A DNA stretch of 64,000 nt from a virus (lineage: Duplodnaviria; Caudoviricetes). The DNA is taken from positions 1-64,000 of IMG/VR virus record IMGVR_UViG_3300028833_000110; one strand, 5' to 3'. The number at the start of each line of letters is the position of its first letter. The first letter of the stretch is position 1. The translations under genes were made by a program, and so were the position numbers. Below are positions 889-19,116 of this stretch, piece by piece. The notes beneath the pieces were generated by a model. It saw only the letters and a list, made by a program, of their open reading frames with translations, was not told the origin of the DNA and made no database searches.

Positions 889-1258
889 TATTTTGTTGTT
901 TTTTAGGTACTATATTATTTTTTATGTCTTCTATTGGTTTTACTGAAGATCTATCTTGTACGTAAGGTTTCTGGGATTTTTTTATTAAACGTCTCTTTTT
1001 TTTTAAAAGTTCCTTTGTTTCAGAATTAGTGGAGTTAATTGCATCAGTTAGTTTGTTTGTAGCCTCTATTTGCTCTTTTTGGAATTTTTTTTCATTATTT
1101 CCTCGATGTAAATTAGTTGCTAAGTTTACAGCACTTATACCGGTACCAACAACTCCAATTTCTGCTTTATGATTATCCCAAATGTCTTTTCCCTTATCGA
1201 TAGTTTTTTTTACACCAGTTCTAAATTTACTGAAGGTTTTCAATCTAAATTTTATCAT
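875..1258 (-). CDS. Leader-bearing basic protein (MIKFRLKTFS)
   Basis: Shared leader, short hydrophobic helix, Lys-rich. Confidence 0.6.
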   Translation of the reverse strand: MIKFRLKTFSKFRTGVKKTIDKGKDIWDNHKAEIGVVGTGISAVNLATNLHRGNNEKKFQKEQIEATNKLTDAINSTNSETKELLKKKRRLIKKSQKPYVQDRSSVKPIEDIKNNIVPKKQQNNDKI

Positions 1259-1272
1259 TTTAAACCCTTCTT

Positions 1273-1791
1273 TTAATAACTATAACCCTCTCTTTGGGTC
1301 ATATTTTGTTTCCAATCTGCTCTTTCTCTACGTAATGCCTGTCGTTGTGCATAACCAAGTCGCTTATTGTAGAAATTAACATCTTGCTTTTTTTCTCTAT
1401 ATTTCTTGAGTCCTTTACTTAACCCAATAGCAGTTCCAATAGCTGCTCCAGCAATTCCAGTATGTTTAATCCCTCTAAGCACAGATCTCGTGAGGGCTGG
1501 ATTAGCAACCCCTGATCTAACCGTATTTGTTATGGCACTTCTATTTCCAATCCCCTTTAATATTCCTCCAGTAACGGCTCCGGCTCCAGCACCTATAACA
1601 GCACCTTGAGCAGCAGAAGTTAATGGACCACCAATTCCAGGACCACGCTTCTTTTCCTCAGCTAATATATCAGAGTCTTTAGCTCTCTTTAAGTTATCAG
1701 TATCATCCCATCGTGTAAATTCTTTTTGGGCATACTCATAACCATCATAAAAAGCCTGATTTATTAGCTCTTCGTATGTTTTATTATTCAT
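1273..1791 (-). CDS. Glycine-zipper protein with AFYDGYEYAQKEF and WDDTDNLKRAKDSDILAEE modules
   Basis: Paralog of 15962..16414; leader module shared with 13987, 14685, 15240 and 59826. Confidence 0.65.
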   Translation of the reverse strand: MNNKTYEELINQAFYDGYEYAQKEFTRWDDTDNLKRAKDSDILAEEKKRGPGIGGPLTSAAQGAVIGAGAGAVTGGILKGIGNRSAITNTVRSGVANPALTRSVLRGIKHTGIAGAAIGTAIGLSKGLKKYREKKQDVNFYNKRLGYAQRQALRRERADWKQNMTQREGYSY

Positions 1792-1804
1792 ATTTTTCTA
1801 TTTT

Positions 1805-2974
1805 TTATTGTTGTACTGGTTGATTTTGGGACTTTTCGTAGGCAAATGCTTTCTTATCTACAGCCTCGAGGGGTTTTCTTACAGCTTTGTCTCCCCACTC
1901 AAATGGTTTCCATTTAGCAGCAGCCAAACCAACTCCAGCCAAGATTCCGACAGGACCTGTTTTTCGTACAACCTTAGCAGCCTTATTCATCCAAACCCCT
2001 CGTCCTGGTTTTGTCATTTGATCGGCTAATTTCCCCCTACTTGTTTTTCCCATATAAAATCCCCAGTTTTCATACCAGGGAGTTTTTTCAGCAGGGGTTG
2101 CATACTGTCTTTCCTCAGATTGTGATTGTTTTATCTGATCCTTAAGTTGTTGTCTTTGGGATAGATAACCAACAGCAGGGAAAGCAGCACCGAATCCAAC
2201 AGCCGCAAGAGCTTTTCCAGGAGATCCGGCAGCATCCTTAAATGCTTCCTTACCCATAGTCTTAGCTTTACCCCAGGCGGAATTCATAGTAGCTTTATTC
2301 AGTTTTCCTTTTCTAGCTAACATAAGAGTTCCTGCGGTAGCTCCTAATGTTCCAGCACCTATCAAAACTCCATTCTTTATTTTCTTTCCTAAACTTTTCT
2401 TCTCTTTTTCTGGGGTATCTACGGGAGCTCCAAGTTTCTTACGATCAGCCTGTATTATTTTATCTGTCAAATACCCAGATCCGGCCATAATAGCACCAGA
2501 AGCCATCATGTTAGCCATCTTTTGACCTGATCCCCTTTCTTTACCTATTTCTATGAGATCACGACCAAAATCTCTGGCATTATTAACTGTTTTAGATTGC
2601 TTTAACCGATTGACTACATTATCCATAGTCTTACTGTTTGCAACCTTTCTAATACCCTTTGCTACAGGAGAGAAGATAGAATAAGTTTTCGTTTTTCTTT
2701 TTAGAGTTATTGAATAGGTGGTTTGTTGCATTACGGCGGGAGATTGTACTAGTGAACCATTTTTAGCCGCAGTTTTAGCAGCTTCTTCATAAGCTTTCGT
2801 CTGTTTTGCCATAAGATTTGTTTGTCTTTTTAGCTCTCTTTCTTGGGCTTCATTAGCTTCTCTTTGATCTTTATTTGCCTTTACAGATAGGGGGACTCCA
2901 GCTACCATAGCTGCATTTCCTAATCCCGCTATAATTGCAGGAAGAGCATATATCTTCTCTCTAAACTGTATCAT
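1805..2974 (-). CDS. Leader-bearing putative polyprotein with several amphipathic segments
   Basis: MIQFREKIYA leader; internal QTTYS, TLKRKTKTYS and ERQYA sites. Confidence 0.6.
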   Translation of the reverse strand: MIQFREKIYALPAIIAGLGNAAMVAGVPLSVKANKDQREANEAQERELKRQTNLMAKQTKAYEEAAKTAAKNGSLVQSPAVMQQTTYSITLKRKTKTYSIFSPVAKGIRKVANSKTMDNVVNRLKQSKTVNNARDFGRDLIEIGKERGSGQKMANMMASGAIMAGSGYLTDKIIQADRKKLGAPVDTPEKEKKSLGKKIKNGVLIGAGTLGATAGTLMLARKGKLNKATMNSAWGKAKTMGKEAFKDAAGSPGKALAAVGFGAAFPAVGYLSQRQQLKDQIKQSQSEERQYATPAEKTPWYENWGFYMGKTSRGKLADQMTKPGRGVWMNKAAKVVRKTGPVGILAGVGLAAAKWKPFEWGDKAVRKPLEAVDKKAFAYEKSQNQPVQQ

Positions 2975-2976
2975 AA

Positions 2977-3285
2977 TTAAACACTCCTATCTTGTAAGCT
3001 TTGGCCTGCGTCTTTGAGTCCCTTTCCTATTCCTCCAGTGATATTCTTACCGGCAACATATCCAGCAATACCACCAACTAGTCCAGCTCCAAGTCCGCCA
3101 CCTAGTCCATATTTAATAGCACTTCCGAGAACTTTTGCTCCGGCTAATCCTCCTACAAAACGTCCTGCATTAGAGTCGAGAACACTACCTGCCCCCTTCA
3201 TGACTCCTCCAGCTGTATTTCCTAGAACATTACCAGCAGCTTCGAGAGCACCAAATGTTTTTCTTTTTAATCTGTATCTTGCCAT
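2977..3285 (-). CDS. Leader-bearing Gly-rich glycine-zipper protein
   Basis: MARYRLKRKTFG followed by continuous GxxxG repeats. Confidence 0.65.
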   Translation of the reverse strand: MARYRLKRKTFGALEAAGNVLGNTAGGVMKGAGSVLDSNAGRFVGGLAGAKVLGSAIKYGLGGGLGAGLVGGIAGYVAGKNITGGIGKGLKDAGQSLQDRSV

Positions 3286-3482
3286 TTTCCTAATCTCCCA
3301 TTATTTAATTCTGTATTTAGTTTTCTCATTTCTCTATTTAATTCAATTTCAGCTCCAACTATTTGTCTTTTGGTATCTAATCGTTCAAGTCTATTAAAAT
3401 CTTGATCATATTTTCTACCACGTTTAAATCCAGGAACTCCAAAAGTATTAAGAGTCTTTGAAAACTTACGTAATATAATCAT
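3267..3482 (-). CDS. Small leader-bearing protein (MIILRKFS)
   Basis: ORF track; shared leader. Confidence 0.55.
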   Translation of the reverse strand: MIILRKFSKTLNTFGVPGFKRGRKYDQDFNRLERLDTKRQIVGAEIELNREMRKLNTELNNGRLGKWQDTD

Positions 3483-4072
3483 AATTCTAAGAGATATATT
3501 TGATATTTTAGACCAAATGGTAGAATATTTATAGCTTTAATGGCATCCTGTATACTACTAAATTCAAGAACTAAAGAACGACTTGTTTTATCATATTTTA
3601 AAGCTTCCCCTAGTAATTCTCTTACAGGAATGGATAGATCAAATGGAAGATCACTACTGAAAGATGCTCCTCCACCATTATCTCCACCACCTCCATTTCC
3701 GTTTCTGTTTCTGTTTCTGTTGTTATTAAATAATTTGTACTTAAGAACCTCTTCTTCAGAAAATAGCTTGTTTTTGAGGCTTATCTTGATATTTAATAGT
3801 CGCTTATCGTATACATGTTCCGGAAGCCTAATTTCATCAGGCATCTTAGCTTTAGCTCCCACCTTAATATACATTCTATATCTATCTCTATGTCCAAATG
3901 CTGTAGAAATAACAAATCTTTCTATTACAACACTATTACCTTTTAGCGTAGGTAATAACTGTGATGAGTTTATGAGCTTAAATTTATTCCGATCAGAATA
4001 TTTCATAAGCTCGACATAAAGACTTCTCATAGCATCGTACTCAGAGAATAGTTTTTGTCTGAATTCTATCAT
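3479..4072 (-). CDS. Leader-bearing hypothetical virion protein (MIEFRQKLFS)
   Basis: Leader plus internal NKLFS; Asn/Gly linker. Confidence 0.55.
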   Translation of the reverse strand: MIEFRQKLFSEYDAMRSLYVELMKYSDRNKFKLINSSQLLPTLKGNSVVIERFVISTAFGHRDRYRMYIKVGAKAKMPDEIRLPEHVYDKRLLNIKISLKNKLFSEEEVLKYKLFNNNRNRNRNGNGGGGDNGGGASFSSDLPFDLSIPVRELLGEALKYDKTSRSLVLEFSSIQDAIKAINILPFGLKYQIYLLEL

Positions 4073-4073
4073 A

Positions 4074-4442
4074 TTATCTTACTATTGAGAGATTATATTT
4101 CACTCCTAGGATCTCTATAATATCTAAAACTATGCCCTTCTCTGGTCTTTCTGCAGTTATGACTCTTGTTTTAGTATCTACATCTGTAATCCTCATTTGG
4201 AATATATCTCGAACTAATTTTTGTGTATATTTATATAACTCCTTGTCTTGGAGTTTAATTTCATATTGACCTTCTTCATTCTTTATAAACGAACGAAGAA
4301 CCATGGCTTTTGAATTAACCCTTGAAACTTGATCCGCCTGGTCTTCAGAAATAGTATTAAATCGGACTCCTTGTTTTTTTAGGTATTCAATTGCTTCTGG
4401 CATAAGATCTTGAATAATTGATTTTTTTCTAAATGAAACCAT
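4074..4442 (-). CDS. Hypothetical protein, structural operon
   Basis: ORF track; tight operon packing. Confidence 0.5.
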   Translation of the reverse strand: MVSFRKKSIIQDLMPEAIEYLKKQGVRFNTISEDQADQVSRVNSKAMVLRSFIKNEEGQYEIKLQDKELYKYTQKLVRDIFQMRITDVDTKTRVITAERPEKGIVLDIIEILGVKYNLSIVR

Positions 4443-4455
4443 AATATGCGGATTC

Positions 4456-5556
4456 TTAGTTTATTAATATTTTATCCAATTCACTATCAGAACTAAACAA
4501 TTCTGCCTGTATTTCCTCTAAAAACTGATATCTTCCATCTAGAACTTCATAAAAATAAAGTTCACACCTAAATTGACATTGATATGAGAAATTAGAGTTG
4601 TCATCCTGTTGATATATATGGTTAAAGTCCTCTGTTATTTGCCCCCACTTTACTGCAGCTGTCCACCTTTCTCCATACTTATCTGTAGTCTTAAACTCAC
4701 AGAAATTAGTTAGGATATCTAAGTTATTATATTTATTTTTAAAATCAAAAAACATAACCATATCTGGGGTTCGCAAAGTAAATTCTATGGGAACTCTATG
4801 GGACATTAAATAATCAGTCTCATCAGTACGCTTAGGATGACTATATTTAGAGGGAGTCTGATTGAACATGTAAACTATATAAGAAGTTTTTTTCAATGTC
4901 TCTTCCTTATTCCACCGGACAAGCTCAATTCCATAGTCATTTAATATTCTCCTAAGTTCTAGTATAAATTGATTTTGGTAGTCTATAGCTCGTATAATAT
5001 AATCATCATATCTTCTTCGTAATACATAAACAGTATCAGAATCAGACTCGAGCTCTATACTCTTACTACCTAGAGATATCTTTGGGAAATTCTTAACTGT
5101 CCAGCATTTAGGTCTAGGTCCGACAGGCTTAAGATATAAAAGATTCCCAGAGTAAAAAAGAAAGTTAATAAATTCTTGATTATTAACATCCTCTTGTGAG
5201 ACTACTATTGTTGTGTGATTATAATCTTGAACTACTCTAGACTCACAATCCCCTACTATTATCAAATTTATTATGTGGGGAGAAGAGGTAAGTTTTCGTA
5301 GTTTTAATCCATTAAGAGATACATAAACATCTGAAAACCTGATTGCTTTATTTGTTGGTTCTAGTACTTGTGAAGATCCTACTTTATCTATTCCAAGGAA
5401 CCCAGCAACCGAGTCAGATGTACTTCCAGGAGTATAAGTCAAGGTAATAGTAGAGGTGTTTTTATCTTCAACCAGAGAAATAGTATTTCCTTCTATTACC
5501 TTATAATACCTACACCCAGAATTAATTTTTATTCCTTGGTAGATAAGTTCATTCAT
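4456..5556 (-). CDS. Hypothetical structural protein (possible neck or tail completion)
   Basis: Lies between capsid and sheath genes; beta-rich C-terminus. Function inferred from position only. Confidence 0.35.
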   Translation of the reverse strand: MNELIYQGIKINSGCRYYKVIEGNTISLVEDKNTSTITLTYTPGSTSDSVAGFLGIDKVGSSQVLEPTNKAIRFSDVYVSLNGLKLRKLTSSPHIINLIIVGDCESRVVQDYNHTTIVVSQEDVNNQEFINFLFYSGNLLYLKPVGPRPKCWTVKNFPKISLGSKSIELESDSDTVYVLRRRYDDYIIRAIDYQNQFILELRRILNDYGIELVRWNKEETLKKTSYIVYMFNQTPSKYSHPKRTDETDYLMSHRVPIEFTLRTPDMVMFFDFKNKYNNLDILTNFCEFKTTDKYGERWTAAVKWGQITEDFNHIYQQDDNSNFSYQCQFRCELYFYEVLDGRYQFLEEIQAELFSSDSELDKILIN

Positions 5557-6413
5557 TAGTCTCCGTATATTCCGTCGTTTTTAAATACATTATCTGGATC
5601 TAAAACAGATTTGGGTTCTGGTTTTTGACTAGGATTAGGACCACTTGTCTTTGGTTTTTTTCCACCCAGATTATATCTATTTAAGAATGCTTCTTTAGCT
5701 TTGTTTCCACGATTGGTGGCTTTCTGGTTAATTTCTTTTTGGAGACTATCAGATATGGTTTTCTTATTTCCCGCAAGTCTATTGGATGTAATATTTTCAA
5801 CTGCCTTCCCGTATTTGTCTGCGGCACTATTAACCATACCCTGACTTCCTAATTTTTTACCAGCAGAAGCCCACAATTTATTTGCGTTCATTGCAGTTTG
5901 TCCACCGAACAAACCACGTCTAGCTCCAGCGAATGCAAGGGCCGTTGTTGCAGCAGTTGCTCCTACACCGAGAGCTATTTTTCCACCAGTACTCATCCTG
6001 GATTTTTTACCATCTTCTTCAGAATAGGTTTTTCTTTTTAATGTATAAGTAGTAGCCATGTCATTCTTTTTTACTTGAGAAAACATTTTACTTCCATCAC
6101 TTTGTTCCGAAGCTTTACTTACAACACCTTTAGCAGCAAGCCCAGTACCGACAGCAAGAGTTCCAGCAAGAGCAAGAGGTTTTCCAATTCCCTTAGCTAT
6201 ATTTCCAGCTACACTACCAACGGCTCGATTAGTTGCAGGATTTATATTAACTGTTTTTTTTGTGGCTAGATTAACGGCCTGGTTTACATTACCAGTAGCC
6301 ATATGCCCTAAGTTACTCCAATTATTAACTCCAAGCATTCTTCCAAATGTAGAACCAGCAAATCCACCCCCTGCAAACAGTTTTCTCTTTAAAGTGAAAG
6401 TTGTTTTACTCAT
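5556..6413 (-). CDS. Tandem two-unit leader-bearing basic protein
   Basis: MSKTTFTLKRKLFA and a second internal MATTYTLKRKTYS, each followed by an Ala/Gly hydrophobic helix. Confidence 0.6.
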   Translation of the reverse strand: MSKTTFTLKRKLFAGGGFAGSTFGRMLGVNNWSNLGHMATGNVNQAVNLATKKTVNINPATNRAVGSVAGNIAKGIGKPLALAGTLAVGTGLAAKGVVSKASEQSDGSKMFSQVKKNDMATTYTLKRKTYSEEDGKKSRMSTGGKIALGVGATAATTALAFAGARRGLFGGQTAMNANKLWASAGKKLGSQGMVNSAADKYGKAVENITSNRLAGNKKTISDSLQKEINQKATNRGNKAKEAFLNRYNLGGKKPKTSGPNPSQKPEPKSVLDPDNVFKNDGIYGD

Positions 6414-6476: not shown

Positions 6477-6493
6477 TGTTATGATTAGAGAGA

Positions 6494-7960
6494 TTAATAT
6501 CCAACAGTAAATTCAACTCTCTGGACAAGTTCAGGAGCAAGATACTTAGTACCTTCCTGATAGTAAATACCAGAAGCCATTTGAGTCGGATTGTTATAGT
6601 TACCGATGGTAGGAGTATCGGTTAGAGGCATATAAATACCACGAGCAAGAGGAGCCATCTGACCATCAGCGGTCTTGTGGATAGCATAGAAGACAGCCTT
6701 ATCGTTTCCAGCCTCTGCGATATCATCACTACGGAGAACAGGAATGCCATCATACCAACCCATCAAATCAGAGATGTAAGTCATCTTTTCATTTCTCTTG
6801 AATTTACCAATAATTCCACCTTTCTGGAATTGCGAGGCAGCTCTAGTACCGGCAACATAAGCAGTGGTGGTAACACCCTTGACAGCTTTCTTAGCAAGAG
6901 CGGTTTCAACATTAATCAAGTAAGCGTCAAATAGATCAACTCTCGAACGATAGTCAGTGAAGGTAAGGCTCTGACCATTTAGCTGAGGATTGAAACCAAT
7001 ACCATTCTTAGATAGATCGAGATCAGTCATAGAATTACCATTATAACCCTCCTCAAGAGTAGAAACAAGCTTATAGTTAATCATCTTAGTATAAAGTTCG
7101 CGGAGCTTGGTGAACAAGAATGAAGCCATATCTGAACCGGTGGCTTTCTTCATAGCACCAAGAGCGGCAATGTTATACTCAGCTACCAACATATCAGGAA
7201 CAGTTGATAGACCAAGCTGTTGCATCTTAGCAATAAAACGCTTGTCATTAGCATGAGTACTAGTTGATCCTGTAGTATTGCAGGGAGTACCAGTCACATC
7301 TTCTTTACCAACTAGAGTAATAGCGGTAACACCAGTAACACTAGTAAGTTCAAACTGAACTCTACCATTAAGATAATTAATTGAACCTGAAGTGAGAACA
7401 CCAGGTTTAGCCATGAAATTTCCCTGACCATCGTCAACTAGTTCATAGCTACCAGTAGTTGATGAACTTGAAGTAACTTTAACGCGGACAGTACCGGGAA
7501 TAATTTTACGACCAGTCATAGAAGTCTGATTTGCAGTGGTTGCATCAAGTTCCATTTTGAAGCCACCCATGCTATTAATATCCTGATACTGATCGGGACC
7601 TAGGTTAGGAATAACATTTCTCATGTCAGAGACACCAAGAACATCAAACCAATAAAAGAGACCATTGGGCTGATCAAAATCACGTTCAATGGACATAAAG
7701 CCAGCAAATGAGCTAACATAAGAAGCCACAGAAGCATTAAAATATTGGGTGCTCAGAAGCGGAGTCTCAGCATAACCAGAGAATGTCTTCTGCAAAAGAT
7801 TGCTCTTTGAACCATTATCAAAAATGTCCATCATTTCATCATATCTCGAGAACATTTTAGCATATTCACCAGCACGAATTCTAGCATCATCAACAGATAC
7901 TGAACTATTTTTCAGAGCGGTCATCATTTCATCACTCTGCATGTAATCTAAGTAAGTCAT
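6494..7960 (-). CDS. Major capsid protein (distant T4 gp23-like, HK97 fold)
   Basis: 488 aa; QPNGLFYW-type segment; high-expression codon bias; downstream of scaffold and protease; followed by a terminator. Confidence 0.75.
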   Translation of the reverse strand: MTYLDYMQSDEMMTALKNSSVSVDDARIRAGEYAKMFSRYDEMMDIFDNGSKSNLLQKTFSGYAETPLLSTQYFNASVASYVSSFAGFMSIERDFDQPNGLFYWFDVLGVSDMRNVIPNLGPDQYQDINSMGGFKMELDATTANQTSMTGRKIIPGTVRVKVTSSSSTTGSYELVDDGQGNFMAKPGVLTSGSINYLNGRVQFELTSVTGVTAITLVGKEDVTGTPCNTTGSTSTHANDKRFIAKMQQLGLSTVPDMLVAEYNIAALGAMKKATGSDMASFLFTKLRELYTKMINYKLVSTLEEGYNGNSMTDLDLSKNGIGFNPQLNGQSLTFTDYRSRVDLFDAYLINVETALAKKAVKGVTTTAYVAGTRAASQFQKGGIIGKFKRNEKMTYISDLMGWYDGIPVLRSDDIAEAGNDKAVFYAIHKTADGQMAPLARGIYMPLTDTPTIGNYNNPTQMASGIYYQEGTKYLAPELVQRVEFTVGY

Positions 7961-7982
7961 ATATTCCTTCTTTTTTATTTGT

Positions 7983-10196
7983 TTAATTATTAATAGATTG
8001 ATCTAACCAAGAGACCAATGTATCATTTTTCATTTCTTCGAATTCAGTAGCACTGAACTGAGCCTCCTGAAGTTCTGCTTGTTCACCTTCAGCTGGAGCA
8101 TTCTTAGCTTCCATAATAGCATTGACAGACTCATTTGTAGCATTATTAATAGCTTGGACAGCAGCTAAAGCAGCGTCTTCAATTGATTCAACGCTTGGAG
8201 CTGGATTTTCCTCCTGTAAAGGAACAAGATTACCATTCTCATCATAGACAGCCTGAACAACTTCTGGCTCTGGAGCAGCGGCATTATTAATATCGGCGAA
8301 GAACTTGTCTAGGGGATCAGCAGAGAATTTCTTCTCTTCATCTTCAACCTCGACATCATCTAACATATCCTTAGCCTCATCATCTTCTATTGGAGCTAGA
8401 TCAATATTGTCATCAGTCATTGTAGCCTTAGTATATTCACCACTCTCTTTGTCTTCGATAATAGCAGTACTGTCATCAACCGGAGTAATAATTTCATCCT
8501 CAGTTTCAACTTGCTTATTATCTTCGATAGCCTCCTCAATATCAGATTCATCAGCATCATCGGAGAATACTCTGCACATATAATCAGTCATTTCCTCATT
8601 CTCGCTGAAGAACTTAGTTTCCTCAGCATTTGAATAAGTTTTCTCTTCTGTTAGATCAGCAGCTTCTTCTTCGCTTATCGGTTTAAGGTCAATATCTTCG
8701 TCAGTCATTGTGGCTTTAGTATATTCACCATTTTCTTTATCTTCAATAACGGCAGTCTCATCATCAACTGGAGTAATAATCTCAGAATCAGTCTCAACTT
8801 GCTCATTATTTTCAATGGCTTTCTCAATATCAGCTTCATCGGCTTCCTCAGAAAACAAACGACACATATAATCAGTCATTTCCTCATTCTCGCTGAAGAA
8901 CTTAGTTTCCTCAGTATTTGAATAAGTTTTTTCTCCGGTTAATTCATCAGCCTCTTCCTCACTGATAGGATTGCAGTTCATACTATCGCCATCAACAACA
9001 ACCTTAGTTAATTCACCATTATCTTTATCCTCGACAATAGCAGTATTATCGTCGACGGGAGTTATAATTTCAGTGTCAGTCTCAACTTCTTCACCACCTT
9101 CGATAGCATCTTCAATGGCGGACTGAGATGCATCAATATCATTACAAGCCTCACTAAAGAGACGAGTCATAAAGGCAGTATTATCAATATTATATCTAGT
9201 CACAAAGACATCATGCTCAGAAAACTCAACCTGTTCGGGCTCTTCAATTTCTTCAGTGTCTTCAACTCCAACACTTTCAAGTAGAGAAATAGCATAATCT
9301 CTAGCTTCGGCTTCATCTTCAAAAACCTGAACACCATCAATACCAATCTCCTGAAGTCTAGCCACAAGTTCCTGGGCGCTCTCTTCATCATATTCTGAAG
9401 CATCAACGATTTGATGATTGAATGTATCTATTCCAACCACGTGAAGGGGCATGAATTCCTCTTCATTAGCAGTCTCTTCACCTTCCTCGCTAAAATTCTT
9501 TGAGTCTAGTTCCTGAACATCCATTTCATCGTCATCCATAGTTACCTTTGCTTGATCACCACTATTCTGATCAGTCACAACAACAGCATTATCCTCATCG
9601 GCTACTTTCTCTATCAAAAGATCACCAACTTTAGCTGTCTCCTCACTCTCAATGACTTCAGAAAATAGACGCTCGCAATAAGCCTGATCACTGAATATTC
9701 TCAGAACCACAGTATTATCGGTAGAAACACTGAATTCTTTCTCATCCTCATCACCTTCTGATCCGCACTCACAAGGATCTTGTCCACACTCTGGGCAAAC
9801 ACCATCCTCTGCGTTCTCTTCAACAGTAAGAGCAGGAGTTTCATCAGGATTATGATCTTCAACTTTCTCATCGGGAGCTCCAACTTGATCACCCGGAGTC
9901 ACTCCATCATCTTCCATGTGCAGATAATTCTCCGGTTGGTCTGTAGGGATTTCGACACCCGCAGGATACAGATCATAATTACCATCTTCAGCTTTCTCAG
10001 CAATGGTCTGTTCACCGTTTTCATTATCGGTGATTTCAACCTTGCCTTCACCTAAGTCAACATAAGTCAACTCATCTGTGGTAACTGAACCTTTTCTTTT
10101 TGCTTCTTCAATGTCATTAGCAACCTGTGAAGTTAATTCCTCATCACCTTCAGCAGTAGCACTAAAGACTCTAGTCATAAATCTTGTATTTTCCAT
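7983..10196 (-). CDS. Very acidic prohead scaffold/core protein with internal repeats
   Basis: Extremely Asp/Glu-rich; about three copies of EKTYSNxEETKFFSENEEMTDYMCRxFS...EIITPVDD; immediately upstream of the capsid gene. Confidence 0.65.
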   Translation of the reverse strand: MENTRFMTRVFSATAEGDEELTSQVANDIEEAKRKGSVTTDELTYVDLGEGKVEITDNENGEQTIAEKAEDGNYDLYPAGVEIPTDQPENYLHMEDDGVTPGDQVGAPDEKVEDHNPDETPALTVEENAEDGVCPECGQDPCECGSEGDEDEKEFSVSTDNTVVLRIFSDQAYCERLFSEVIESEETAKVGDLLIEKVADEDNAVVVTDQNSGDQAKVTMDDDEMDVQELDSKNFSEEGEETANEEEFMPLHVVGIDTFNHQIVDASEYDEESAQELVARLQEIGIDGVQVFEDEAEARDYAISLLESVGVEDTEEIEEPEQVEFSEHDVFVTRYNIDNTAFMTRLFSEACNDIDASQSAIEDAIEGGEEVETDTEIITPVDDNTAIVEDKDNGELTKVVVDGDSMNCNPISEEEADELTGEKTYSNTEETKFFSENEEMTDYMCRLFSEEADEADIEKAIENNEQVETDSEIITPVDDETAVIEDKENGEYTKATMTDEDIDLKPISEEEAADLTEEKTYSNAEETKFFSENEEMTDYMCRVFSDDADESDIEEAIEDNKQVETEDEIITPVDDSTAIIEDKESGEYTKATMTDDNIDLAPIEDDEAKDMLDDVEVEDEEKKFSADPLDKFFADINNAAAPEPEVVQAVYDENGNLVPLQEENPAPSVESIEDAALAAVQAINNATNESVNAIMEAKNAPAEGEQAELQEAQFSATEFEEMKNDTLVSWLDQSINN

Positions 10197-10214
10197 ACTA
10201 ATTATTCTTTCTAT

Positions 10215-10982
10215 TTATTTTATTTCTATATTATTATCCTTTTCTCCGATTATACCAAGAGATTTTAATTTCTCTATAATATTCTCGGGAGCATCTGGAT
10301 AACGCTCTTCTATAATACCTTCAAATTCTGGCTTTGACATCGTAGTACCTCCAAATTCGGCTCCTAGATCACCAAGAATACCAGAATCTTCCAGCCAACC
10401 TTCACGATCACCTTCCTTCTTTACTCCATGAACTTTTTTAAGAATGGCAATACATTTAGGGGTCATGCTTAGATTATCAATAAATCCACCAAAATTACCG
10501 TGACTCTGCATAACTTCGGGGACTAATTCATACTCTTTGGTTACTGAAACAACTAACTTTGAAAATAAACGGGATTCTAAGAAAGCTGTACTGGAAATTT
10601 TAATTCCGCCATCTTCAGTAGCTTTTGAAAATCCACGCTCTTCTAGATTAGCTCTTTCTGTTTCACTAAAGTTTTTCTCGTATAGATCCTTACTAATTTC
10701 TCTACCAGAAAATTCCTTTAGTTTTAATTCAAGAGGATCAGAAGTTGTAGAAAACTCCTTTTGAAAATCCTCTTCAAAAATTGAGCGTCTTTGTCTGGTT
10801 TGAACATCGGCTCCACAAACTCTACAATAACCCATGTCCAACTCTTCCTGACTCAATTCATGTCCACAGTCACTACATAGGACTCGAGAAACTTCAACTT
10901 TAGGTTCCTCGCTACTAAATAATTTGCGTCTTGGGGTAGTAGGAGGAACATCACTAAATAATTTACGTCTTTCTTTCTTCAT
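10215..10982 (-). CDS. Putative prohead core protein with Zn ribbon
   Basis: CSDC...CRVC; repeated RKLFS, KEFS, KNFS and RLFS. Confidence 0.5.
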   Translation of the reverse strand: MKKERRKLFSDVPPTTPRRKLFSSEEPKVEVSRVLCSDCGHELSQEELDMGYCRVCGADVQTRQRRSIFEEDFQKEFSTTSDPLELKLKEFSGREISKDLYEKNFSETERANLEERGFSKATEDGGIKISSTAFLESRLFSKLVVSVTKEYELVPEVMQSHGNFGGFIDNLSMTPKCIAILKKVHGVKKEGDREGWLEDSGILGDLGAEFGGTTMSKPEFEGIIEERYPDAPENIIEKLKSLGIIGEKDNNIEIK

Positions 10983-10983
10983 A

Positions 10984-12297
10984 TTACTTTTCCTCCTTTA
11001 ATTCTTCCTCTTCTTCAGGGATATTACTCGAATTGGCTCCAAATACTTCTTCTATGCAGGATCCGACAAACTCATTCCAAGCTGCCTGTAACTTTGTATA
11101 ATAATTTTTTTGAAGAAATCCTGTTTTCTTTGCTTGGATACCACTTAGTCTATAAATCATGTTCAATTTTTCCGCTGAAGTTCTTAGGTTTTTTGAAATA
11201 CTTGAACAACCCAATAAAACATTAATTCTCTTATTGTTAACTATTACATCATTAGATATACGATTCAACAAGAACAATACATCAGATGTAAGCATGGACT
11301 TTAGTATATCTAAGTCCTCAGGTTTAATTTTTTCTACTCCTCCCATGCTTCTTACTACTTGTTTGTAGCTTATAATCATTCTTCTGAAGCACATTCTGGG
11401 AGACATTTTCTTTTCTCTAAGCTGATCTCTGATTCCAGCTTGTGTAAATTCTTTTTGTTCAGGTTGTTCTTTTTCTTCTGACTGTGGCTGTTCAGTAAAT
11501 TCTTTTTCCACAGGCTCTTCGGCATCAACATCAGCTTTAATATCGCTATAAAATGAAAATTCCTTTATCTTAAGCTTAGTAAACTGACCATCAATCTTTG
11601 AAGATTTTGGTAGATCAGATATATCAACACCAGCTTCTGTGGGATTCGAAAAAGTTTTTACTTTTATATTAATTTCGTCTGTTGTAGTTGAGAAAGTTCT
11701 GTCTTTGAATTCAGCTTTCTCTTTATCATCATATATAATTTCAGTAATATGAGATTCAGGACCAAAACTCGGTGAAAGAGTCCAATCCAATCCCTTAATA
11801 AGTTTTATTTTCTTGGCTACATCAGCTCCGCCATTATTTCTATCTGAACCACTCCACCAAGCCACCACGACGAGACTATTTGCTAAGAATACACCGGATT
11901 TTAATAATCCCCGCAATCTCTTTATATTCTCAGCAGCTCTAGAATCAAAATCTTCGGGATCTAAAATGTGTACTTCTGCACTTAGGAAATTCCCTCGTTC
12001 AGTCTCTTCTATATAAAATTTCTTTACATAGTGGGTTGGAGTCGAAATTCCGTCGGCTACAAGAAGTAATTGATCTGAATCCCCAATCTTCTTTTTTATT
12101 ATAGATGCATCACCTGCAGATTCAGGCATACCATCTACTCCCCTACTTTTGTGTGTTAAGCACCCGAGGGTTGATCTTGTGGCTATTGATCTTTTATAAT
12201 CTTCACTCTCAAGATACTCTCTTACAGCAAGTTCGGGGATTATTGAATTATCTGCTGCACGCTGACCTAGAGGGCAACATCTAACTTTTACATCCAT
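10984..12297 (-). CDS. Putative prohead maturation protease
   Basis: LGCLTH...THYVKK...LDWTLSPSF resembles herpes/T4 gp21-type proteases (GELxH...SH...DxVxxPS); portal-protease-scaffold-capsid order; C-terminal KTFS/KEFS/KEFT sites. Confidence 0.65.
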   Translation of the reverse strand: MDVKVRCCPLGQRAADNSIIPELAVREYLESEDYKRSIATRSTLGCLTHKSRGVDGMPESAGDASIIKKKIGDSDQLLLVADGISTPTHYVKKFYIEETERGNFLSAEVHILDPEDFDSRAAENIKRLRGLLKSGVFLANSLVVVAWWSGSDRNNGGADVAKKIKLIKGLDWTLSPSFGPESHITEIIYDDKEKAEFKDRTFSTTTDEINIKVKTFSNPTEAGVDISDLPKSSKIDGQFTKLKIKEFSFYSDIKADVDAEEPVEKEFTEQPQSEEKEQPEQKEFTQAGIRDQLREKKMSPRMCFRRMIISYKQVVRSMGGVEKIKPEDLDILKSMLTSDVLFLLNRISNDVIVNNKRINVLLGCSSISKNLRTSAEKLNMIYRLSGIQAKKTGFLQKNYYTKLQAAWNEFVGSCIEEVFGANSSNIPEEEEELKEEK

Positions 12298-13986: not shown

Positions 13987-14538
13987 TTAATATTTTCCAC
14001 TATTTGCTGCGTTTGTTATTTTAGTATTGAGGGCTTTGGCATTCTTTCCATTACCGAAGAGTGCGCTATTCATTGCTTTCGCCTCCTTACTTTGCTGTCC
14101 AAGAAGCTGACTCCTCCAACCTGATTTAGCAGTCATTAGTGTTTTAAAGTCGTTAGAACCAAGCTTACCTCCTTTAGGGGCCGTCTTTTGAATACCTTGA
14201 ACTAATAAATTTGCATCCTTCATTACTTCTTTGCCTTCCCCCTTTAGTGAACTAATAAGACTAGTATTGCCACCTAAGTTAGTCACTCTTTTAGCCATTT
14301 CAGGACCCTGCATATATTGTCCAGCCTTTCTTAATTGGCGAGCAGTTTTTGCAGCTTTATTTCTAACAAACTGATTCCTTAGTGATCCTAGACTGGGAAA
14401 AGCAAATTCTCTCTGGGCATATTCGTATCCTTCACAAAATGCACGTTCCAAGAGTTCATCCAAGTCTTCATTTCCCGTACTATAAAGCTTCTCATCATAG
14501 TACTCATCATAATCACTGTACAATTTAGTTATTTTCAT
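13987..14538 (-). CDS. Acidic-leader/cationic-core protein (LYSTGNxxLDELLERAFCEGYEYAQREF family)
   Basis: About 45-aa conserved leader followed by a unique basic core. Confidence 0.7.
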   Translation of the reverse strand: MKITKLYSDYDEYYDEKLYSTGNEDLDELLERAFCEGYEYAQREFAFPSLGSLRNQFVRNKAAKTARQLRKAGQYMQGPEMAKRVTNLGGNTSLISSLKGEGKEVMKDANLLVQGIQKTAPKGGKLGSNDFKTLMTAKSGWRSQLLGQQSKEAKAMNSALFGNGKNAKALNTKITNAANSGKY

Positions 14539-14550
14539 TATTTATCATTC

Positions 14551-14595
14551 AACATACAGGGAAAATTTAACTTACTACCCCCCCCCCTGTATGTT
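14551..14595 (-). repeat. 5'-leader hairpin element C with poly-G tract
   Basis: aacatacaggg...ccctgtatgtt, 12 nt upstream of the ATG; near-identical copies at 53017 and 57355. Confidence 0.65.
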
Positions 14596-14632
14596 ATTTT
14601 TTTTTATAAAGGGAGAGATAATATTGTTTTAG

Positions 14633-14678
14633 ATCTAGGAATCCACATTGAAGGGTAGACCTAAAGTCATTCCTAGAT
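14633..14678 (-). repeat. Structured intergenic motif B, copy 1 (copy 2 at 15181..15233)
   Basis: atctaggaat...attcctagat stem enclosing conserved atccacat..aagggtagacc.aaagtc. Confidence 0.55.
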
Positions 14679-14684
14679 ATTAGT

Positions 14685-15095
14685 TTAATTATTGCTATTA
14701 TTCTTTTTATTCTTTTTGTGTTTTTTAATAGCAGCCGTAGTACCAACAGCAGCAGCAACAGGGAGAGCAATCATAGCACCTTTACCAGCCATATTGATTC
14801 TTTTGGCTCTTTTGGCATTTTTCTCAACGAGTTCCCTTATCTTATCCAGGTTTTCATATTTTTCGGGATTTTTAGTGACATCCTTCATTGTTCTCTTTAT
14901 GGTTCTTGCACCAACTCGTTCTATGTCACCTAAGGTTTCTCCTCTAAACCAATCTCCAATCTTACCAAACTCTCTTTGTGCATATTCATATCCATCACAA
15001 AAAGCTCTTTCCATCAATTCATCTAATTCATCATTACCAGTACTATATAATCTCTCTTCTTCCTGATAATTACTGTACAATCTTTCTATTTTCAT
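14685..15095 (-). CDS. Acidic-leader/cationic-core protein
   Basis: MKIERLYSNYQEEERLYSTGNDELDELMERAFCDGYEYAQREF leader; C-terminal hydrophobic helix and Lys tail. Confidence 0.7.
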   Translation of the reverse strand: MKIERLYSNYQEEERLYSTGNDELDELMERAFCDGYEYAQREFGKIGDWFRGETLGDIERVGARTIKRTMKDVTKNPEKYENLDKIRELVEKNAKRAKRINMAGKGAMIALPVAAAVGTTAAIKKHKKNKKNNSNN

Positions 15096-15106
15096 TATTT
15101 CTTGTT

Positions 15107-15155
15107 GCTATAGGGAGAAATTGTTTCTTTTATCTTATCACCTCCCCCCTATAGC
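15107..15155 (-). repeat. 5'-leader hairpin element C2 (copy at 60447..60491)
   Basis: gctatagg...cctatagc hairpin just upstream of the ATG. Confidence 0.6.
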
Positions 15156-15239
15156 TCTGTTTTTATAAAGGAGGAATAGTATCTAAGAACCAGAAATCCA
15201 CATCAAAGGGTAGACCCAAAGTCATTCCTAGATATTTTT

Positions 15240-15935
15240 TTATTCACTTTTCTTCTTCTTTCCTGTTTTAGCAGCAATAGTAGCACCAGCAGCAACTACA
15301 GGAGCTGCAGCAGCAGTATATCTTAGGGCTTTACCACCAACCTTAGCACGGTTCAGGGCTTTTTCAGCTGCCTTAGTTGCTTTCTTTGCAGCCTCAATTG
15401 CCTTAGTTGGATCATTCATTGTACCACCTTCAGTAGCAAATTTCATAGCATTATTAGCCTTTTCTAAGTTTTCTTTGGATCTTTTAATACTACGTTGGAA
15501 TGGTTTTTCTGAAGCATCAACTATTTTTCTATAAGCATTTTTTATTTTACTTTCCTGACCCTCTAATTTATCAGCTCTCATTAGAACTTTCTCAGGGTTT
15601 GCCATTGTTCCACCCTCTCCTGCAAAATTAGCTTCATTTCTAGCTTTTTCTGCACGGGATCTCAAAACTTTCTTCCCAAGTTTCTTTCCACCATAAGCGG
15701 CACCTACACCAGCACCTGCACCTACGGTACCACCAATACCAGCTCTAAGTCCTGTACGTCCTTTCTTCTCTTCTTCTTCCTCTTCGGCAAATTCTCTTTG
15801 TGCATATTCATAACCTTCACAAAAAGCTCTTTCCAGAAGTTCATCTAATTCATCATTACCAGTGCTATAAAGTTTTTCCTCTTCATAATCACTTTCGCTG
15901 TAAAATCTTTCAGCAAATTCTCTTCCGTTAATCAT
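15240..15935 (-). CDS. Acidic-leader/cationic-core protein with glycine zipper
   Basis: Same leader; internal duplication FAxEGGTMxxP. Confidence 0.7.
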   Translation of the reverse strand: MINGREFAERFYSESDYEEEKLYSTGNDELDELLERAFCEGYEYAQREFAEEEEEEKKGRTGLRAGIGGTVGAGAGVGAAYGGKKLGKKVLRSRAEKARNEANFAGEGGTMANPEKVLMRADKLEGQESKIKNAYRKIVDASEKPFQRSIKRSKENLEKANNAMKFATEGGTMNDPTKAIEAAKKATKAAEKALNRAKVGGKALRYTAAAAPVVAAGATIAAKTGKKKKSE

Positions 15936-15961
15936 AATTCTCTTATTGTTTATTTTTTTTA

Positions 15962-16414
15962 TTAGGAGGTATATTCTTCTCTCCCATTTGTCATATTATT
16001 AGCCCAATCTTTCTTTTCACGTCTTAGGGCCTGTTTCTTTGCATATCGTAGACGTTCATTGTAGTGGTTTACTTCTTCAACCTCTTTTTGTCGTTTATTA
16101 GTAGCTCCGATAGCAAGAGTACCAGCAGTAAGAGCAGCGGCCAGTTTTATATTTTTCTTTCCACCACGCCTTACTAATTTCTCAGCAATACGTTTAGCTT
16201 CACCCTTTCCAACCCGTTTTGTGATTCTAGCGGCGAGATGACCAACAGCACCACCCGCAGCGCCTGTTATAGCCCCCGCACCAGCAGCACTCACAATCTT
16301 TCCTATTCCCGGTTTTTTCTTTTCTTCTTCAGCCAGGATATCAGAGTCTTTAGCTCTCTTTAGGTTGTCAGTATCATCCCACTTAGTAAAATTCTTAGTT
16401 CTTAGGATTAACAT
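15962..16414 (-). CDS. Leader-bearing glycine-zipper protein (MLILRTKNFT)
   Basis: Paralog of 1273..1791. Confidence 0.65.
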   Translation of the reverse strand: MLILRTKNFTKWDDTDNLKRAKDSDILAEEEKKKPGIGKIVSAAGAGAITGAAGGAVGHLAARITKRVGKGEAKRIAEKLVRRGGKKNIKLAAALTAGTLAIGATNKRQKEVEEVNHYNERLRYAKKQALRREKKDWANNMTNGREEYTS

Positions 16415-16518
16415 GATTTTAATGGGTTATACGTACTATTCTCAGAGTCTAATTCTTGTTTTGAATTTTCTACCCCTTCAGTAAACGTTTTTTCTTTAAT
16501 TTTTTCTTCGTCGTACAT
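16408..16518 (-). CDS. 36-aa small acidic ORF (MYDEEKIKEKTFT...)
   Basis: Read by hand; fills the intergenic gap and contains KTFT. Confidence 0.35.
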   Translation of the reverse strand: MYDEEKIKEKTFTEGVENSKQELDSENSTYNPLKSC

Positions 16519-16526
16519 AATAAAAG

Positions 16527-16850
16527 CTATTTTGGCATAGCTACAGGATCTACACCTTTTGATCTAGTTTTATATAATCCAACGTTTTTAGGAGAATCAT
16601 CAAGGTTCTGCATTTTTTGGGTCTGAAGCATTGCCTTGTTTTCTTGCATATCCTTTTGCATCTCCATTTTCTGTAGTTGTTGGATTCTTTTCATTCTATT
16701 TTTAGCCGCATCTGCCTCTAATTTTTGTTTTGTTCGTTGGTTAATCATGATCTGTCTTTGCATTCTCATATTTTCCAACTGTATATCTCTAGGGGTTAAT
16801 TGCTGTGGTTCTTCTACGGCTGCAAATTTTTTCTGTCGTATTATTTTCAT
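16527..16850 (-). CDS. Leader-bearing Gln/Met-rich coiled-coil protein
   Basis: MKIIRQKKFA. Confidence 0.6.
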   Translation of the reverse strand: MKIIRQKKFAAVEEPQQLTPRDIQLENMRMQRQIMINQRTKQKLEADAAKNRMKRIQQLQKMEMQKDMQENKAMLQTQKMQNLDDSPKNVGLYKTRSKGVDPVAMPK

Positions 16851-16864
16851 TCTATTTTATATTT

Positions 16865-17389
16865 TTAAACAGAACTTTTTTCTTTATATCTGGCTTGTGA
16901 TTCTTTTCTTCTCTTGTCAGTTACCTTTTTCGCATATTTTTCATGCTTCTTTCCTTTAGATTGACCAACAAGAAGTCCCAAAGAAGCTCCACCAGCACCT
17001 GCACCGATTAATGCCCCAACACCTGCTTTTTTGTTTTTCATAGCATTAATACCAGCCCCTAAAGTTCCACCTAAAAGACTTCCGGTTACTCCACCAACTA
17101 TTCTTCCTTCTTTGGTTCCTCGTCTTTTAGAATTTTTTATAATTTTTTCATCGACTCCCTTTTCATCCTCTCGAGTTATGTCATCGAGGTTCATTTTTTC
17201 CATCTCTGCTTTTGATACGTCTGGATACAATACATTATCATCGTGATATGCTCTTAATGGAGTTCTTTTCTCACGATCTGCTTCTTCCGTATCATATTTT
17301 CTTTGGTTAGGAGATAGTCTATTTTTCTTATATCTATCCCATATAGGAGTCTTTGATTCTGAATAGGTTTTCTGTCTTAGGATTTTCAT
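16865..17389 (-). CDS. Leader-bearing glycine-zipper protein
   Basis: MKILRQKTYS; GGVTGSLLGGTLGAG. Confidence 0.65.
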   Translation of the reverse strand: MKILRQKTYSESKTPIWDRYKKNRLSPNQRKYDTEEADREKRTPLRAYHDDNVLYPDVSKAEMEKMNLDDITREDEKGVDEKIIKNSKRRGTKEGRIVGGVTGSLLGGTLGAGINAMKNKKAGVGALIGAGAGGASLGLLVGQSKGKKHEKYAKKVTDKRRKESQARYKEKSSV

Positions 17390-19116
17390 ATACCAAGCCC
17401 TCCATTCTTTTGTTCTGGGGTTTGCTGCTGAAGAATAGACGGATCAATACCAAGTTGTTCAAGCTGACTATTAACTTTAGCTTTGGCAACTTGTATATAT
17501 TGTTGTAGAGTCTCTTCATTTATCAGATTCTCGGTATTTGGGTCTATGTCTTTAAGCAGATTATGTACGTAAGTTAAGTATGCCTCAGGATCTATTAGAG
17601 GAGAAGCAAGATCTAATGTTTGGAGTGAAGTTTGTATTATATTTGAAATTCCTTGTACCAAACCATTAATACTCTCACTTTGATTAATCTGATTATTATA
17701 CTCTACACTAGTCTTTTCTGATATATGTAATTTAATGAGACTTGGATCTAATTCTTTTCCATATAAAGTTGAATATATAGAACAAACCAAATTAGTTACT
17801 GAATCTTTTATACCAGCCATAAAAGCAGCGACTCTAGAATTGGCTCGTTCTGATTGTTGGAGAACCTGCCATTTCGAGCCAGAAGTTGAGTCGATAATAG
17901 TGGCTGGAAGACCTAAAGGATTTAATACATTACTTTTACATTGATCTAAGGTTTGCATTATTTCCAGAAGTTTATCACTTAACTTATCTAGGGGAAGCAT
18001 ACTATTTTTTCCGCCAAGTGTTGAGTTATAGTCTGGAATAAATTTAGCTGATTGTGTGAGAGTGTTTTCTATGAAACTTACAACATCAAATTGAGATGTT
18101 AAGAAAGAACTAATCTCATTTGTATTATTAGCTAGTTTTGTAGCTCTAGCACACAATTCATTAGCAGTTTCGAGGGGCACTGATTTATCGAATTGTAAGA
18201 GGAATAATTGAACGGAAGTAAGATCACGTAAAGAAATAAGAGAAACTAATAACTCTTTAATCACTAATTCCTTTACTTTTATAATCAAACTATAAAATAA
18301 CGGTTCTGATGCCATATATGACTCTTTTCTCGTTACTTTCTCCCGTGTTCCTTTCTGTCCTTTTCCATCTTTTGGTCTTTCTAACCACTTCTTATTTTTA
18401 TCTTTCCAATCCGGTGAGAGATCATTTACTAGACGAAGATTAGAAGAAGCTAAGTAAATCATTTCTTTCTTTGGGATTTCATAAATTACATTATCTTCTC
18501 CTCTAGCTAAAAATACTTCTTCCGTCTCCATATCTTCTTCTCCCCGCTTTCTCTTAATTACTACAGATAGTGGGTCAAATAATTCTTCTATTCTAAATCT
18601 ATAGTGTCCTAGCTCATCCTTCGTTGATCTAAGCATGCTATAATAACCACCATAAAAGACATAATCCTGTACATGATCTCGTATAAAATCAAATACTTTT
18701 ATATCCTTAACTAAAACATCATTAATTCTCTGTGTCCTCGTTTCATCTTTATTTCCCTCTTCATCTAAAATTGTAACTAGTTGAGCTCCATTAGAATCAT
18801 CAGCTAAAAAATTTATTATATAATCTGCAAAAAAATTAGTCGCAAGTTTTGAGATATCTAAAAGCTGATAACCCTTTAGCTCTGACATCTTTTCATAATA
18901 AGAGGATAGTCTAGAGGAAGGCATATAATTTCCTAATAGCGGTGACTTTCTATCCATATTATCAAAAATTCTGGATTGAGTTGTGCCACCTATAGGAAAA
19001 TATCCGGATGTACCATTAGAACCATAAACATTAGACCTTAGTGCAAAACGTCCTGATCCTAAAGCGAATGACCCGAATATTTTTTGTACTAGGGTTTCGT
19101 TGTTTTCTCTTTTCAT
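17386..19116 (-). CDS. Portal protein (putative)
   Basis: 576 aa; first gene of the head operon; helical, with DYVFYGGYY and LGLP motifs typical of portals. Confidence 0.6.
   Translation of the reverse strand: MKRENNETLVQKIFGSFALGSGRFALRSNVYGSNGTSGYFPIGGTTQSRIFDNMDRKSPLLGNYMPSSRLSSYYEKMSELKGYQLLDISKLATNFFADYIINFLADDSNGAQLVTILDEEGNKDETRTQRINDVLVKDIKVFDFIRDHVQDYVFYGGYYSMLRSTKDELGHYRFRIEELFDPLSVVIKRKRGEEDMETEEVFLARGEDNVIYEIPKKEMIYLASSNLRLVNDLSPDWKDKNKKWLERPKDGKGQKGTREKVTRKESYMASEPLFYSLIIKVKELVIKELLVSLISLRDLTSVQLFLLQFDKSVPLETANELCARATKLANNTNEISSFLTSQFDVVSFIENTLTQSAKFIPDYNSTLGGKNSMLPLDKLSDKLLEIMQTLDQCKSNVLNPLGLPATIIDSTSGSKWQVLQQSERANSRVAAFMAGIKDSVTNLVCSIYSTLYGKELDPSLIKLHISEKTSVEYNNQINQSESINGLVQGISNIIQTSLQTLDLASPLIDPEAYLTYVHNLLKDIDPNTENLINEETLQQYIQVAKAKVNSQLEQLGIDPSILQQQTPEQKNGGLGI

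Follow-up and report, generated by a model that had tools for sequence, protein, structure and literature searches.

Phage T4 matures its head with the protease gp21, which acts at one short motif: it cuts the scaffold and the core proteins as well as itself, takes 65 residues off gp23 and trims the ~10-residue leaders of the internal proteins (PMC9026906, PMC9958956). The giant phages phiKZ and SPN3US encode highly diverged gp21 homologues (gp175 and gp245, respectively). These proteases cleave off their own C-terminal parts at several copies of their motif (PMC5694885) and act at repeated sites in long propeptides and in many packaged proteins (PMC5694885, PMC10052503). A His-Ser-Asp triad has been described for gp21 and SPN3US gp245 (PMC5694885). 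Here, we examine the head genes in a 64,000-nucleotide (nt) window of an uncultured Caudoviricetes genome (positions 1 to 64,000 of IMG/VR record IMGVR_UViG_3300028833_000110), where the short motif [KR]-x-[FY]-[SAT] recurs in the predicted prohead protease and its presumed substrates. It is likely, judging from conservation and predicted structure, that the protease encoded by the phage itself cleaves at [KR]-x-[FY]-S, and that the bond cut is probably Phe/Tyr-Ser. The motif was first noticed in a sequence-only reading of the window, which proposed an aromatic P1 for the protease; the computational tests described below support that reading.

The proteins in question are encoded by four consecutive open reading frames (ORFs):

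10984..12297, minus strand: predicted prohead protease, 437 amino acids (aa), its catalytic domain joined by a multi-site linker to a helical C-terminal domain (AlphaFold, structural search, homologues)
10215..10982, minus strand: core protein, 255 aa, with seven motif copies (motif count, orthologues)
7983..10196, minus strand: putative scaffold of 737 aa, 30% of them Asp or Glu, with the motif in 15 copies (position and composition)
6494..7960, minus strand: predicted major capsid protein, 488 aa, with an HK97 fold and a T4 gp23-like insertion domain (AlphaFold, structural search)

The likeness to T4 lies in the modelled fold of the protease (VIA-align Z 12.7 against gp21), in the His-Ser-Asp order of its candidate catalytic residues, and in the gene order from portal to capsid. 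As in T4, a single P3-x-P1 motif is found in the scaffold, core and protease, at the end of a predicted capsid propeptide of ~60-65 residues, and in leaders of ~10 residues (PMC9026906, PMC9958956). The predicted P1 is Phe/Tyr rather than Glu, however, and P3 is Lys/Arg rather than Leu/Ile. The protease is also twice as long as that of T4, with a 150-residue helical C-terminal domain behind the multi-site linker, and goes undetected by Pfam and PHROG models. Finally, ~27 ORFs in 96 kilobases (kb) carry a leader, compared to IPI, IPII, IPIII and Alt in T4. The likeness to phiKZ gp175 and SPN3US gp245 lies in high divergence from gp21 and in C-terminal self-removal at several motif copies, which is predicted here; those proteases cut after Glu at (S/A/G)-x-E, whereas the motif of the window is aromatic-Ser and known from sequence alone. 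The P3-x-P1 register is common to the motif of the window, T4 [LI]-x-E and the [SAG]-x-E of phiKZ and SPN3US (PMC9026906, PMC5694885). The system is predicted to be a T4-type head protease with substrates and leaders of known type, and its aromatic specificity would be new. A search of the literature found no report of an aromatic-P1 prohead protease.

The motif in the head proteins and its conservation

All tetrapeptides named in the sequence-only reading were found in the ORFs to which it had assigned them. Motif counts for single ORFs were compared with 1000 residue shuffles. The scaffold contains 15 copies of [KR]-x-[FY]-[SAT] where 0.45 are expected, and the core protein contains seven (at aa 7, 20, 75, 89, 103, 116 and 138) where 0.47 are expected. 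The scaffold has approximately three internal repeats of ~95 residues with three sites each, so that ~10 of its 15 sites are independent. The protease has five copies against 0.85 expected (P=0.002), all of them in residues 200-285. In the capsid protein, two copies against 1.14 expected are not significant by count alone; the significance of these sites, at residues 35 and 58, comes through position and conservation only. Pooled, the four head ORFs have 29 sites where chance would give 2.9, and no excess is seen in the plus-strand block at 19.8-37.6 kb (6 observed, 9.0 expected). The comparison of head with non-head proteins, which the sequence-only reading had suggested as a check, therefore finds the motif concentrated in the head ORFs and not in this block. 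The motif is real and occurs well beyond chance.

The same result was obtained when no motif was specified beforehand. In an unbiased scan of gapped three-residue patterns in the scaffold, core protein and protease, K.FS (12 observed, 0.32 expected) and R.FS (9 observed, 0.19 expected) were far ahead of all others. The Glu-type motifs [LI]-x-E (T4-type) and [SAG]-x-E (phiKZ-type) are not above composition in the four head proteins, and neither the herpesvirus motif nor a Prp-like motif is enriched there. At the internal sites, P3 is Lys or Arg in 27 of 27 cases; only three positions of the motif are constrained, with P2 free. The folded parts of the proteins (capsid residues 62-488, both protease domains, the portal and ORF 4456-5556) contain no copies, against ~3.3 expected. 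The motif sites sit instead in disordered segments, namely the protease linker and capsid residues 53-65, and this placement in the models supports the cleavage reading. Autoproteolysis at His-Phe-Ser of the Nup98/ZU5 type needs a folded domain; it was set aside, since the motif sites lie in disordered acidic linkers.

The strongest evidence for a function of the motif is that relatives keep the individual sites although the surrounding sequence changes: this is the case in 36 of 36 homologues for four of the five sites in the protease linker, and in 50 of 54 for the aromatic residue at capsid position 60. The enrichment recurs in 14 diverse related loci, with 11-19 sites in the scaffold, 4-8 in the core protein, 4-5 in the protease (there invariably C-terminal to the catalytic domain) and 2-3 in the capsid N-terminus. 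At the N-terminal site of the scaffold, relatives keep Phe-Ser and lose the Lys/Arg at P3.

Cutting at every motif would turn the scaffold into fragments of 9-144 aa. The name 'scaffold' for 7983-10196 is putative; it is given on position and composition, and the protein has no family match in Pfam or PHROG. More generally, the four head proteins gave nothing useful when searched against Pfam, PHROG and PDB sequences; in Pfam and PHROG, the only match was a weak PHROG one of the capsid protein. Between its second and third motif copies, the core protein has a CxxC-13-CxxC arrangement (aa 36-56) that resembles a zinc ribbon.

The protease, the predicted capsid propeptide and the leaders

A total of 178 homologues of the protease were found. 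Its AlphaFold model, built on 36 homologues with 41-84% identity, has a predicted local distance difference test (pLDDT) score of 76. In it, confidently modelled N-terminal and helical C-terminal domains flank a disordered stretch:

11728..12297, minus strand: catalytic domain, aa 1-190, with the candidate triad His49/Ser141/Asp171 and no motif copy (invariance)
11443..11706, minus strand: disordered linker, aa 198-285, with motifs RTFS at 200, KTFS at 214, KEFS at 245, KEFT at 265 and KEFT at 282 (pLDDT)
10987..11442, minus strand: helical C-terminal domain, aa 286-437, all-helical, pLDDT ~90, with no motif copy

In a VIA-align search, the best match to the model was T4 gp21 (5jbl_A; root-mean-square deviation (rmsd) 2.7 over 134 aa, model residues 1-175), and the top three Foldseek matches were chains of 5jbl. 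The next matches in VIA-align were the proteases of varicella-zoster virus (Z 9.8) and human cytomegalovirus (Z 8.1), with unrelated structures at 6.5 or below. Herpesvirus assemblins have a (V/L/I)-x-A/S consensus that is cut before Ser, with Ala at P1 and a His-Ser-His triad. The protease of the window shares with them the fold class, the P3-x-P1 register and Ser at P1', but differs in having a His-Ser-Asp set and a predicted aromatic P1.

His49, Ser141 and Asp171 are invariant across the 36 homologues. In the gp21 alignment, His49 corresponds to gp21 His85 and Asp171 to gp21 Asp168, which makes these three residues a candidate catalytic triad in the same order as in gp21. The model and the invariant residues indicate that the 437-aa protein is a serine protease of the gp21/assemblin fold; structure prediction for an assemblin-like His/Ser site had been suggested as a check in the sequence-only reading. 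Its gene is also placed as that of gp21, between the portal gene (a lead-level call) and the genes for scaffold and capsid.

The linker has a pLDDT below 50 at residues 198-217 and 229-284, and is poorly conserved outside the motif sites, the [KR]-x-F-[ST] sites being its sole conserved islands. All 36 homologues retain four of the five sites, with Lys/Arg at P3, Phe/Tyr at P1 followed by Ser/Thr, and a variable P2. All five are predicted to be sites of self-cleavage. The C-terminal domain is predicted to anchor the protease in the core until the linker is cut, by analogy with the C-terminal propeptides of phiKZ gp175 and SPN3US gp245 (PMC5694885).

The capsid protein was likewise modelled (pLDDT 87, predicted template modelling score 0.80). 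VIA-align matched the model to T4 gp23 (Z 18.3, rmsd 3.2 over 250 aa), gp24 (Z 16.9), S6 (Z 16.1) and P1 (Z 15.4), and Foldseek to the P1 head (2e-19), S6 and T4, with E-values of 2e-19 to 1e-12. On this structural evidence, the 488-aa ORF, which the sequence-only reading had called a capsid protein, is one of the HK97/T4 gp23 type. Three features are proposed at its N-terminus:

7781..7960, minus strand: predicted capsid propeptide, aa 1-60 (conservation and model)
7847-7858, minus strand: capsid site 1, K35-M-F/S38 (motif)
7778-7789, minus strand: capsid site 2, K58-T-F/S61 (motif)

Residues 3-49 are helical in the model, and residues 53-65 are disordered. In a family of 54 capsid proteins that extends down to 20% identity, 50 members have an aromatic residue at position 60 and 47 have Ser or Ala at position 61. 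The two positions are the best conserved of the first 70 residues and lie just ahead of the conserved body of the protein, while the stretch between site 1 and site 2 varies in length and sequence. Some homologues keep the aromatic residue and follow it with Asp, Asn or Ile; because of this, Phe is favoured as P1, and the scissile bond most likely lies between Phe/Tyr and Ser rather than after Ser. The region SGYAETP, near which the mature capsid protein had been proposed to start, comes directly after the most conserved aromatic residue and within the predicted disordered loop. The final N-terminus is most likely Ser61 (SGYAETP...).

A further set of motif copies is found at the start of small proteins. 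In the 96-kb record, 27 ORFs have the motif inside their first 12 residues, and most of these leaders fit M-[KI]-I-[LIF]-R-[QT]-K-x-[FY]-[SAT], a nine-residue unit of approximately M-K-I-L-R-Q-K-x-F that is followed by Ser. Six small ORFs in 13987..17389 each open with a leader, with the motif at residue 5-10, and another six leader-bearing ORFs lie in 235..6413, including 235-888, 875-1258, 1805-2974, 3479-4072 and 5556-6413. A short N-terminal leader that ends in the protease motif is therefore common to unrelated proteins, as in T4. The proteins that bear it are presumably packaged in the capsid.

ORF 5556-6413 contains a second complete leader, which starts from an internal Met at approximately residue 119. 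In a related locus (L065), the counterparts of its two units each have a gene of their own (11713-12015 and 12036-12437), which suggests gene fusion or fission at a leader boundary.

Some proteins depart from the simple leader. One paralogue family (13987-14538, 14685-15095, 15240-15935, 59826-60434 on the minus strand, and 67198-67662 of G000) has two motif copies ~10 residues apart at the start, in the form M-K-I-E-R-L-Y-S ... R-L-Y-S-T-G-N-D-E-L, and then a conserved Cys/Tyr-rich helix ending in R-E-F-A. ORF 1273-1791 has the Cys/Tyr-rich-helix domain of this family without a leader. Degenerate leaders, M-K-I-L-R-Q-Q... and M-K-I-L-R-Q-K-Q-K-E-F-N, are found at 43526-44854 and 61553-62365, respectively (both minus strand). 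The products of these two ORFs have weak, sub-threshold matches to Zn_peptidase_2 and may be packaged enzymes. The muramidase encoded at 42567-43373 has no leader.

Taken as a mechanism, the protease would recognise [KR]-x-[FY] followed by Ser, or less often by Ala or Thr, and would cut with the aromatic residue at P1 and Ser at P1'. After assembly of the prohead, it would cut its own linker at four or five sites, thus freeing the catalytic domain from the helical anchor. It would then degrade the scaffold and the core protein of 255 aa to peptides 9-144 residues long, remove ~60 residues from the capsid protein so that Ser61 becomes the new N-terminus, and trim the nine-residue leaders of ~27 small proteins, which the leader would mark as contents of the capsid. 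This order of events is proposed by analogy with T4.

Relatives and alternative explanations

A distant clade of JGI metagenome loci (L083-L100) encodes capsid proteins that are 20-25% identical to that of the window. Here, the top pattern by far is N-F-S, with 82 copies against 5.4 expected, a part of which comes from homologous capsid positions. It occurs 5-11 times per scaffold-like ORF, at capsid residue ~75, in the protease linker and in N-terminal leaders. The protease homologue of one member, L090 (5617-6717; hhalign probability 90.6% over 323 columns), keeps the His, Ser and Asp as well as the succession of catalytic domain, linker and helical domain, and has four copies of N-F-S where the [KR]-x-F-[ST] copies of the window sit. 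The presence of N-F-S at the linker sites of this clade implies that the Phe-Ser core is old and the upstream determinant lineage-specific. On these alignments, Phe/Tyr-Ser appears as the conserved core, with Lys/Arg at P3 the preference of the window's clade and Asn at P2 that of the distant one. Since scaffold, linker and capsid share the motif of their own clade, the motif tracks the lineage of the phage protease, and neither a host enzyme nor chance would readily explain this co-variation.

Among cultured phages, tblastn found only weak capsid matches, to the E. coli phages IME392 (L081) and EP_H11 and to the Ralstonia phage RP13 (L101). In the head modules of these phages, protease and scaffold genes are fused; in the nearest two, RP13 and IME392, the fused gene lies upstream of that for the capsid protein. 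RP13 has a repeated I-N-E-S pattern (I-x-E-S, Glu-type) and no Phe-Ser pattern. As RP13 is Glu-type and the lineage of the window aromatic, the two codes separate by lineage, and none of the weak tblastn matches provides a cultured model for the Phe-Ser code.

The window is part of a 95.8-kb virus record that CheckV estimates to be ~24% complete, and the phage is thus roughly 400 kb in size, with a fragment recovered. A protease identical to the product of 10984-12297 is also encoded on a 211-kb contig, and IMG/VR relatives with capsid proteins 62-81% identical to that of the window are found on contigs of up to ~400 kb. The head module in the window belongs to an uncultured giant phage that has the Jug gut phages as relatives; these are 360-402 kb in size and have Bacteroides/Phocaeicola as predicted hosts (PMC12880540). 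Genes of Jug phages, including that of the prohead protease, are fragmented by small group I introns, and Jug relatives of the lineage were reported to account for ~1% of human gut metagenome reads (PMC12880540). The likeness consists of IMG/VR relatives with a 74% identical capsid protein on contigs of up to ~400 kb, and of protease genes split by insertions of ~150-210 nt in relatives of 375-400 kb. In one of these, a 375-kb IMG/VR contig (L006), the protease gene (5001-6629) lies in three ORFs separated by two insertions of ~150 and ~210 nt, with stops in all frames. The second of these, at 6208-6414, is matched over the full length of the Rfam group I intron model, with a score (28 bits, E 8.5e-5) that stays under the gathering threshold. 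This Jug-like locus has the same motif code as the window. The phage of the window differs in that its protease gene is intact, and it is a relative of the Jug phages rather than an established member. The paper on the Jug phages describes neither a cleavage motif nor leaders (PMC12880540).

Several points weigh against cleavage at the motif. The evidence throughout consists of sequence and predicted structure. The protease has no match in Pfam or PHROG, and its hhalign match to T4 gp21 (30 columns round the catalytic His, probability 0.8%) is too weak to stand alone as evidence of identity. Capsid site 1 (residues 35-38) is part of a helix predicted with confidence, and structural alignment with T4 gp23 and gp24 places the T4 mature start nearer to model residue 38-41 than to 61; because of these alignments, it is possible that the final N-terminus is Ser38 instead. 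The characterised gp21-type proteases all cut after Glu (PMC5694885, PMC9026906). In these acidic head proteins, Glu motifs are too common for counting to dismiss such cutting. The protease might therefore have kept the ancestral Glu specificity at [LIASG]-x-E, with the Phe-Ser motif serving as a kinase site or a structural contact. Indeed, [KR]-x-x-S is formally a basophilic kinase pattern, and close relatives keep A/G/S-x-E-Y immediately ahead of capsid site 1. In the wider capsid family, however, this Glu is lost while Phe60-Ser61 persists, and no Glu site is kept family-wide. Together with the lack of enrichment of Glu motifs in the head proteins, the restriction of conserved linker islands to [KR]-x-F-[ST], and the lineage split seen in RP13, which has I-x-E-S without Phe-Ser, this makes retained Glu specificity very unlikely.

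The main alternative is that the motif is a docking or targeting peptide that stays uncut and binds the inner capsid surface or the scaffold, in a manner similar to the cargo-loading peptides of encapsulins, with the repeats giving multivalency. A short docking motif would show much the same distribution, and its spread over scaffold, protease tether and cargo N-termini would also suit a packaging signal. In addition, the capsid-targeting sequence of T4 joins targeting and cleavage in one 10-residue unit, the roles of which are inseparable by sequence (PMC9958956). On the other hand, protease sites typically have as few constrained positions as the three found here, with P2 free, and a binding peptide would be expected to be longer. 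The motif also stands where the variable capsid propeptide gives way to the conserved body, at a point where the maturation cut is expected and where a signal for self-docking would be illogical, and directly behind the catalytic domain, where the phiKZ and SPN3US proteases cut themselves (PMC5694885). We consider docking without cleavage to be unlikely. The sites could also be cut by a host enzyme such as the cysteine protease Prp, which takes a nine-residue extension off ribosomal protein L27 and, in staphylococcal phage 80alpha, cuts the capsid protein and the scaffold between Phe and Ala (PMC5744158, PMC9405229). Prp is thus a precedent for the cutting of head proteins after Phe and for the removal of 9-14 N-terminal residues (PMC5744158), and the leaders here are nine residues long and end in Phe. 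The single match in a prokaryote genome, a 1-kb contig in an uncultured Clostridium bin, would suit a host with Prp; as a basis for naming Clostridium as the host, it was rejected as too little. The Prp motif, MLxx(D/N)LQ(F/L)F'A(S/H)KK (PMC9405229), is longer (L-x-L-Q-x-F) and is present as one site per protein, whereas the four head proteins contain no Q-[FL]-F-[AS] and have Lys/Arg rather than Gln at P3. No Prp gene (PF04327) is present in the 96-kb record, and the predicted hosts of the Jug phages, Bacteroides/Phocaeicola (PMC12880540), are outside the phyla listed with a long L27 (PMC9405229). The phage, moreover, has its own gp21-like protease with the motif in the linker, and motif and protease lineage shift together ([KR]xFS and NFS). 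Cutting by a host protease is therefore highly improbable.

The wider head module and the meaning of the proposed aromatic code

The order of portal, small proteins, protease, core protein, acidic scaffold and capsid approximates the T4 order 20-67-68-21-22-23. Beyond the four head ORFs, the module comprises:

17386..19116, minus strand: probable portal protein, 576 aa, with zero motif copies (protein-atlas feature search)
13987..17389, minus strand: six small ORFs between portal and protease, predicted core/cargo proteins (N-terminal leader)
235..6413, minus strand: downstream head-module ORFs, of which six bear the N-terminal leader

The feature search reaches T4 Gp20 portal clusters at 0.97 for 17386..19116, and this lead, with the position upstream of the head module, indicates that the ORF probably encodes the portal. 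Two free-standing genes for HNH-type homing endonucleases are present at 12355-13662 and 55355-56662, both on the minus strand (PHROG 559, E 1.6e-49 and 2e-35, respectively). The first is wedged between the genes for small core proteins and the protease gene.

More probably than not, a deep, uncultured branch of T4-like giant phages, which takes in environmental lineages and relatives of the Jug phages, themselves abundant in the human gut, has exchanged the Glu at P1 common to all studied gp21-type head proteases for an aromatic P1 with Ser at P1', the additional subsite differing by subclade (Lys/Arg at P3 or Asn at P2). This would mean that the shallow recognition code of the gp21 fold can be rewritten while the logic of assembly is left unchanged, the protease still releasing itself, destroying the scaffold, removing the propeptide and trimming cargo. 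The motif together with the nine-residue leader gives a rule by which candidate packaged proteins can be picked out from sequence, ~27 ORFs in 96 kb. In a lineage that has no cultured member, the packaged, and probably injected, proteome would then be readable from sequence alone.

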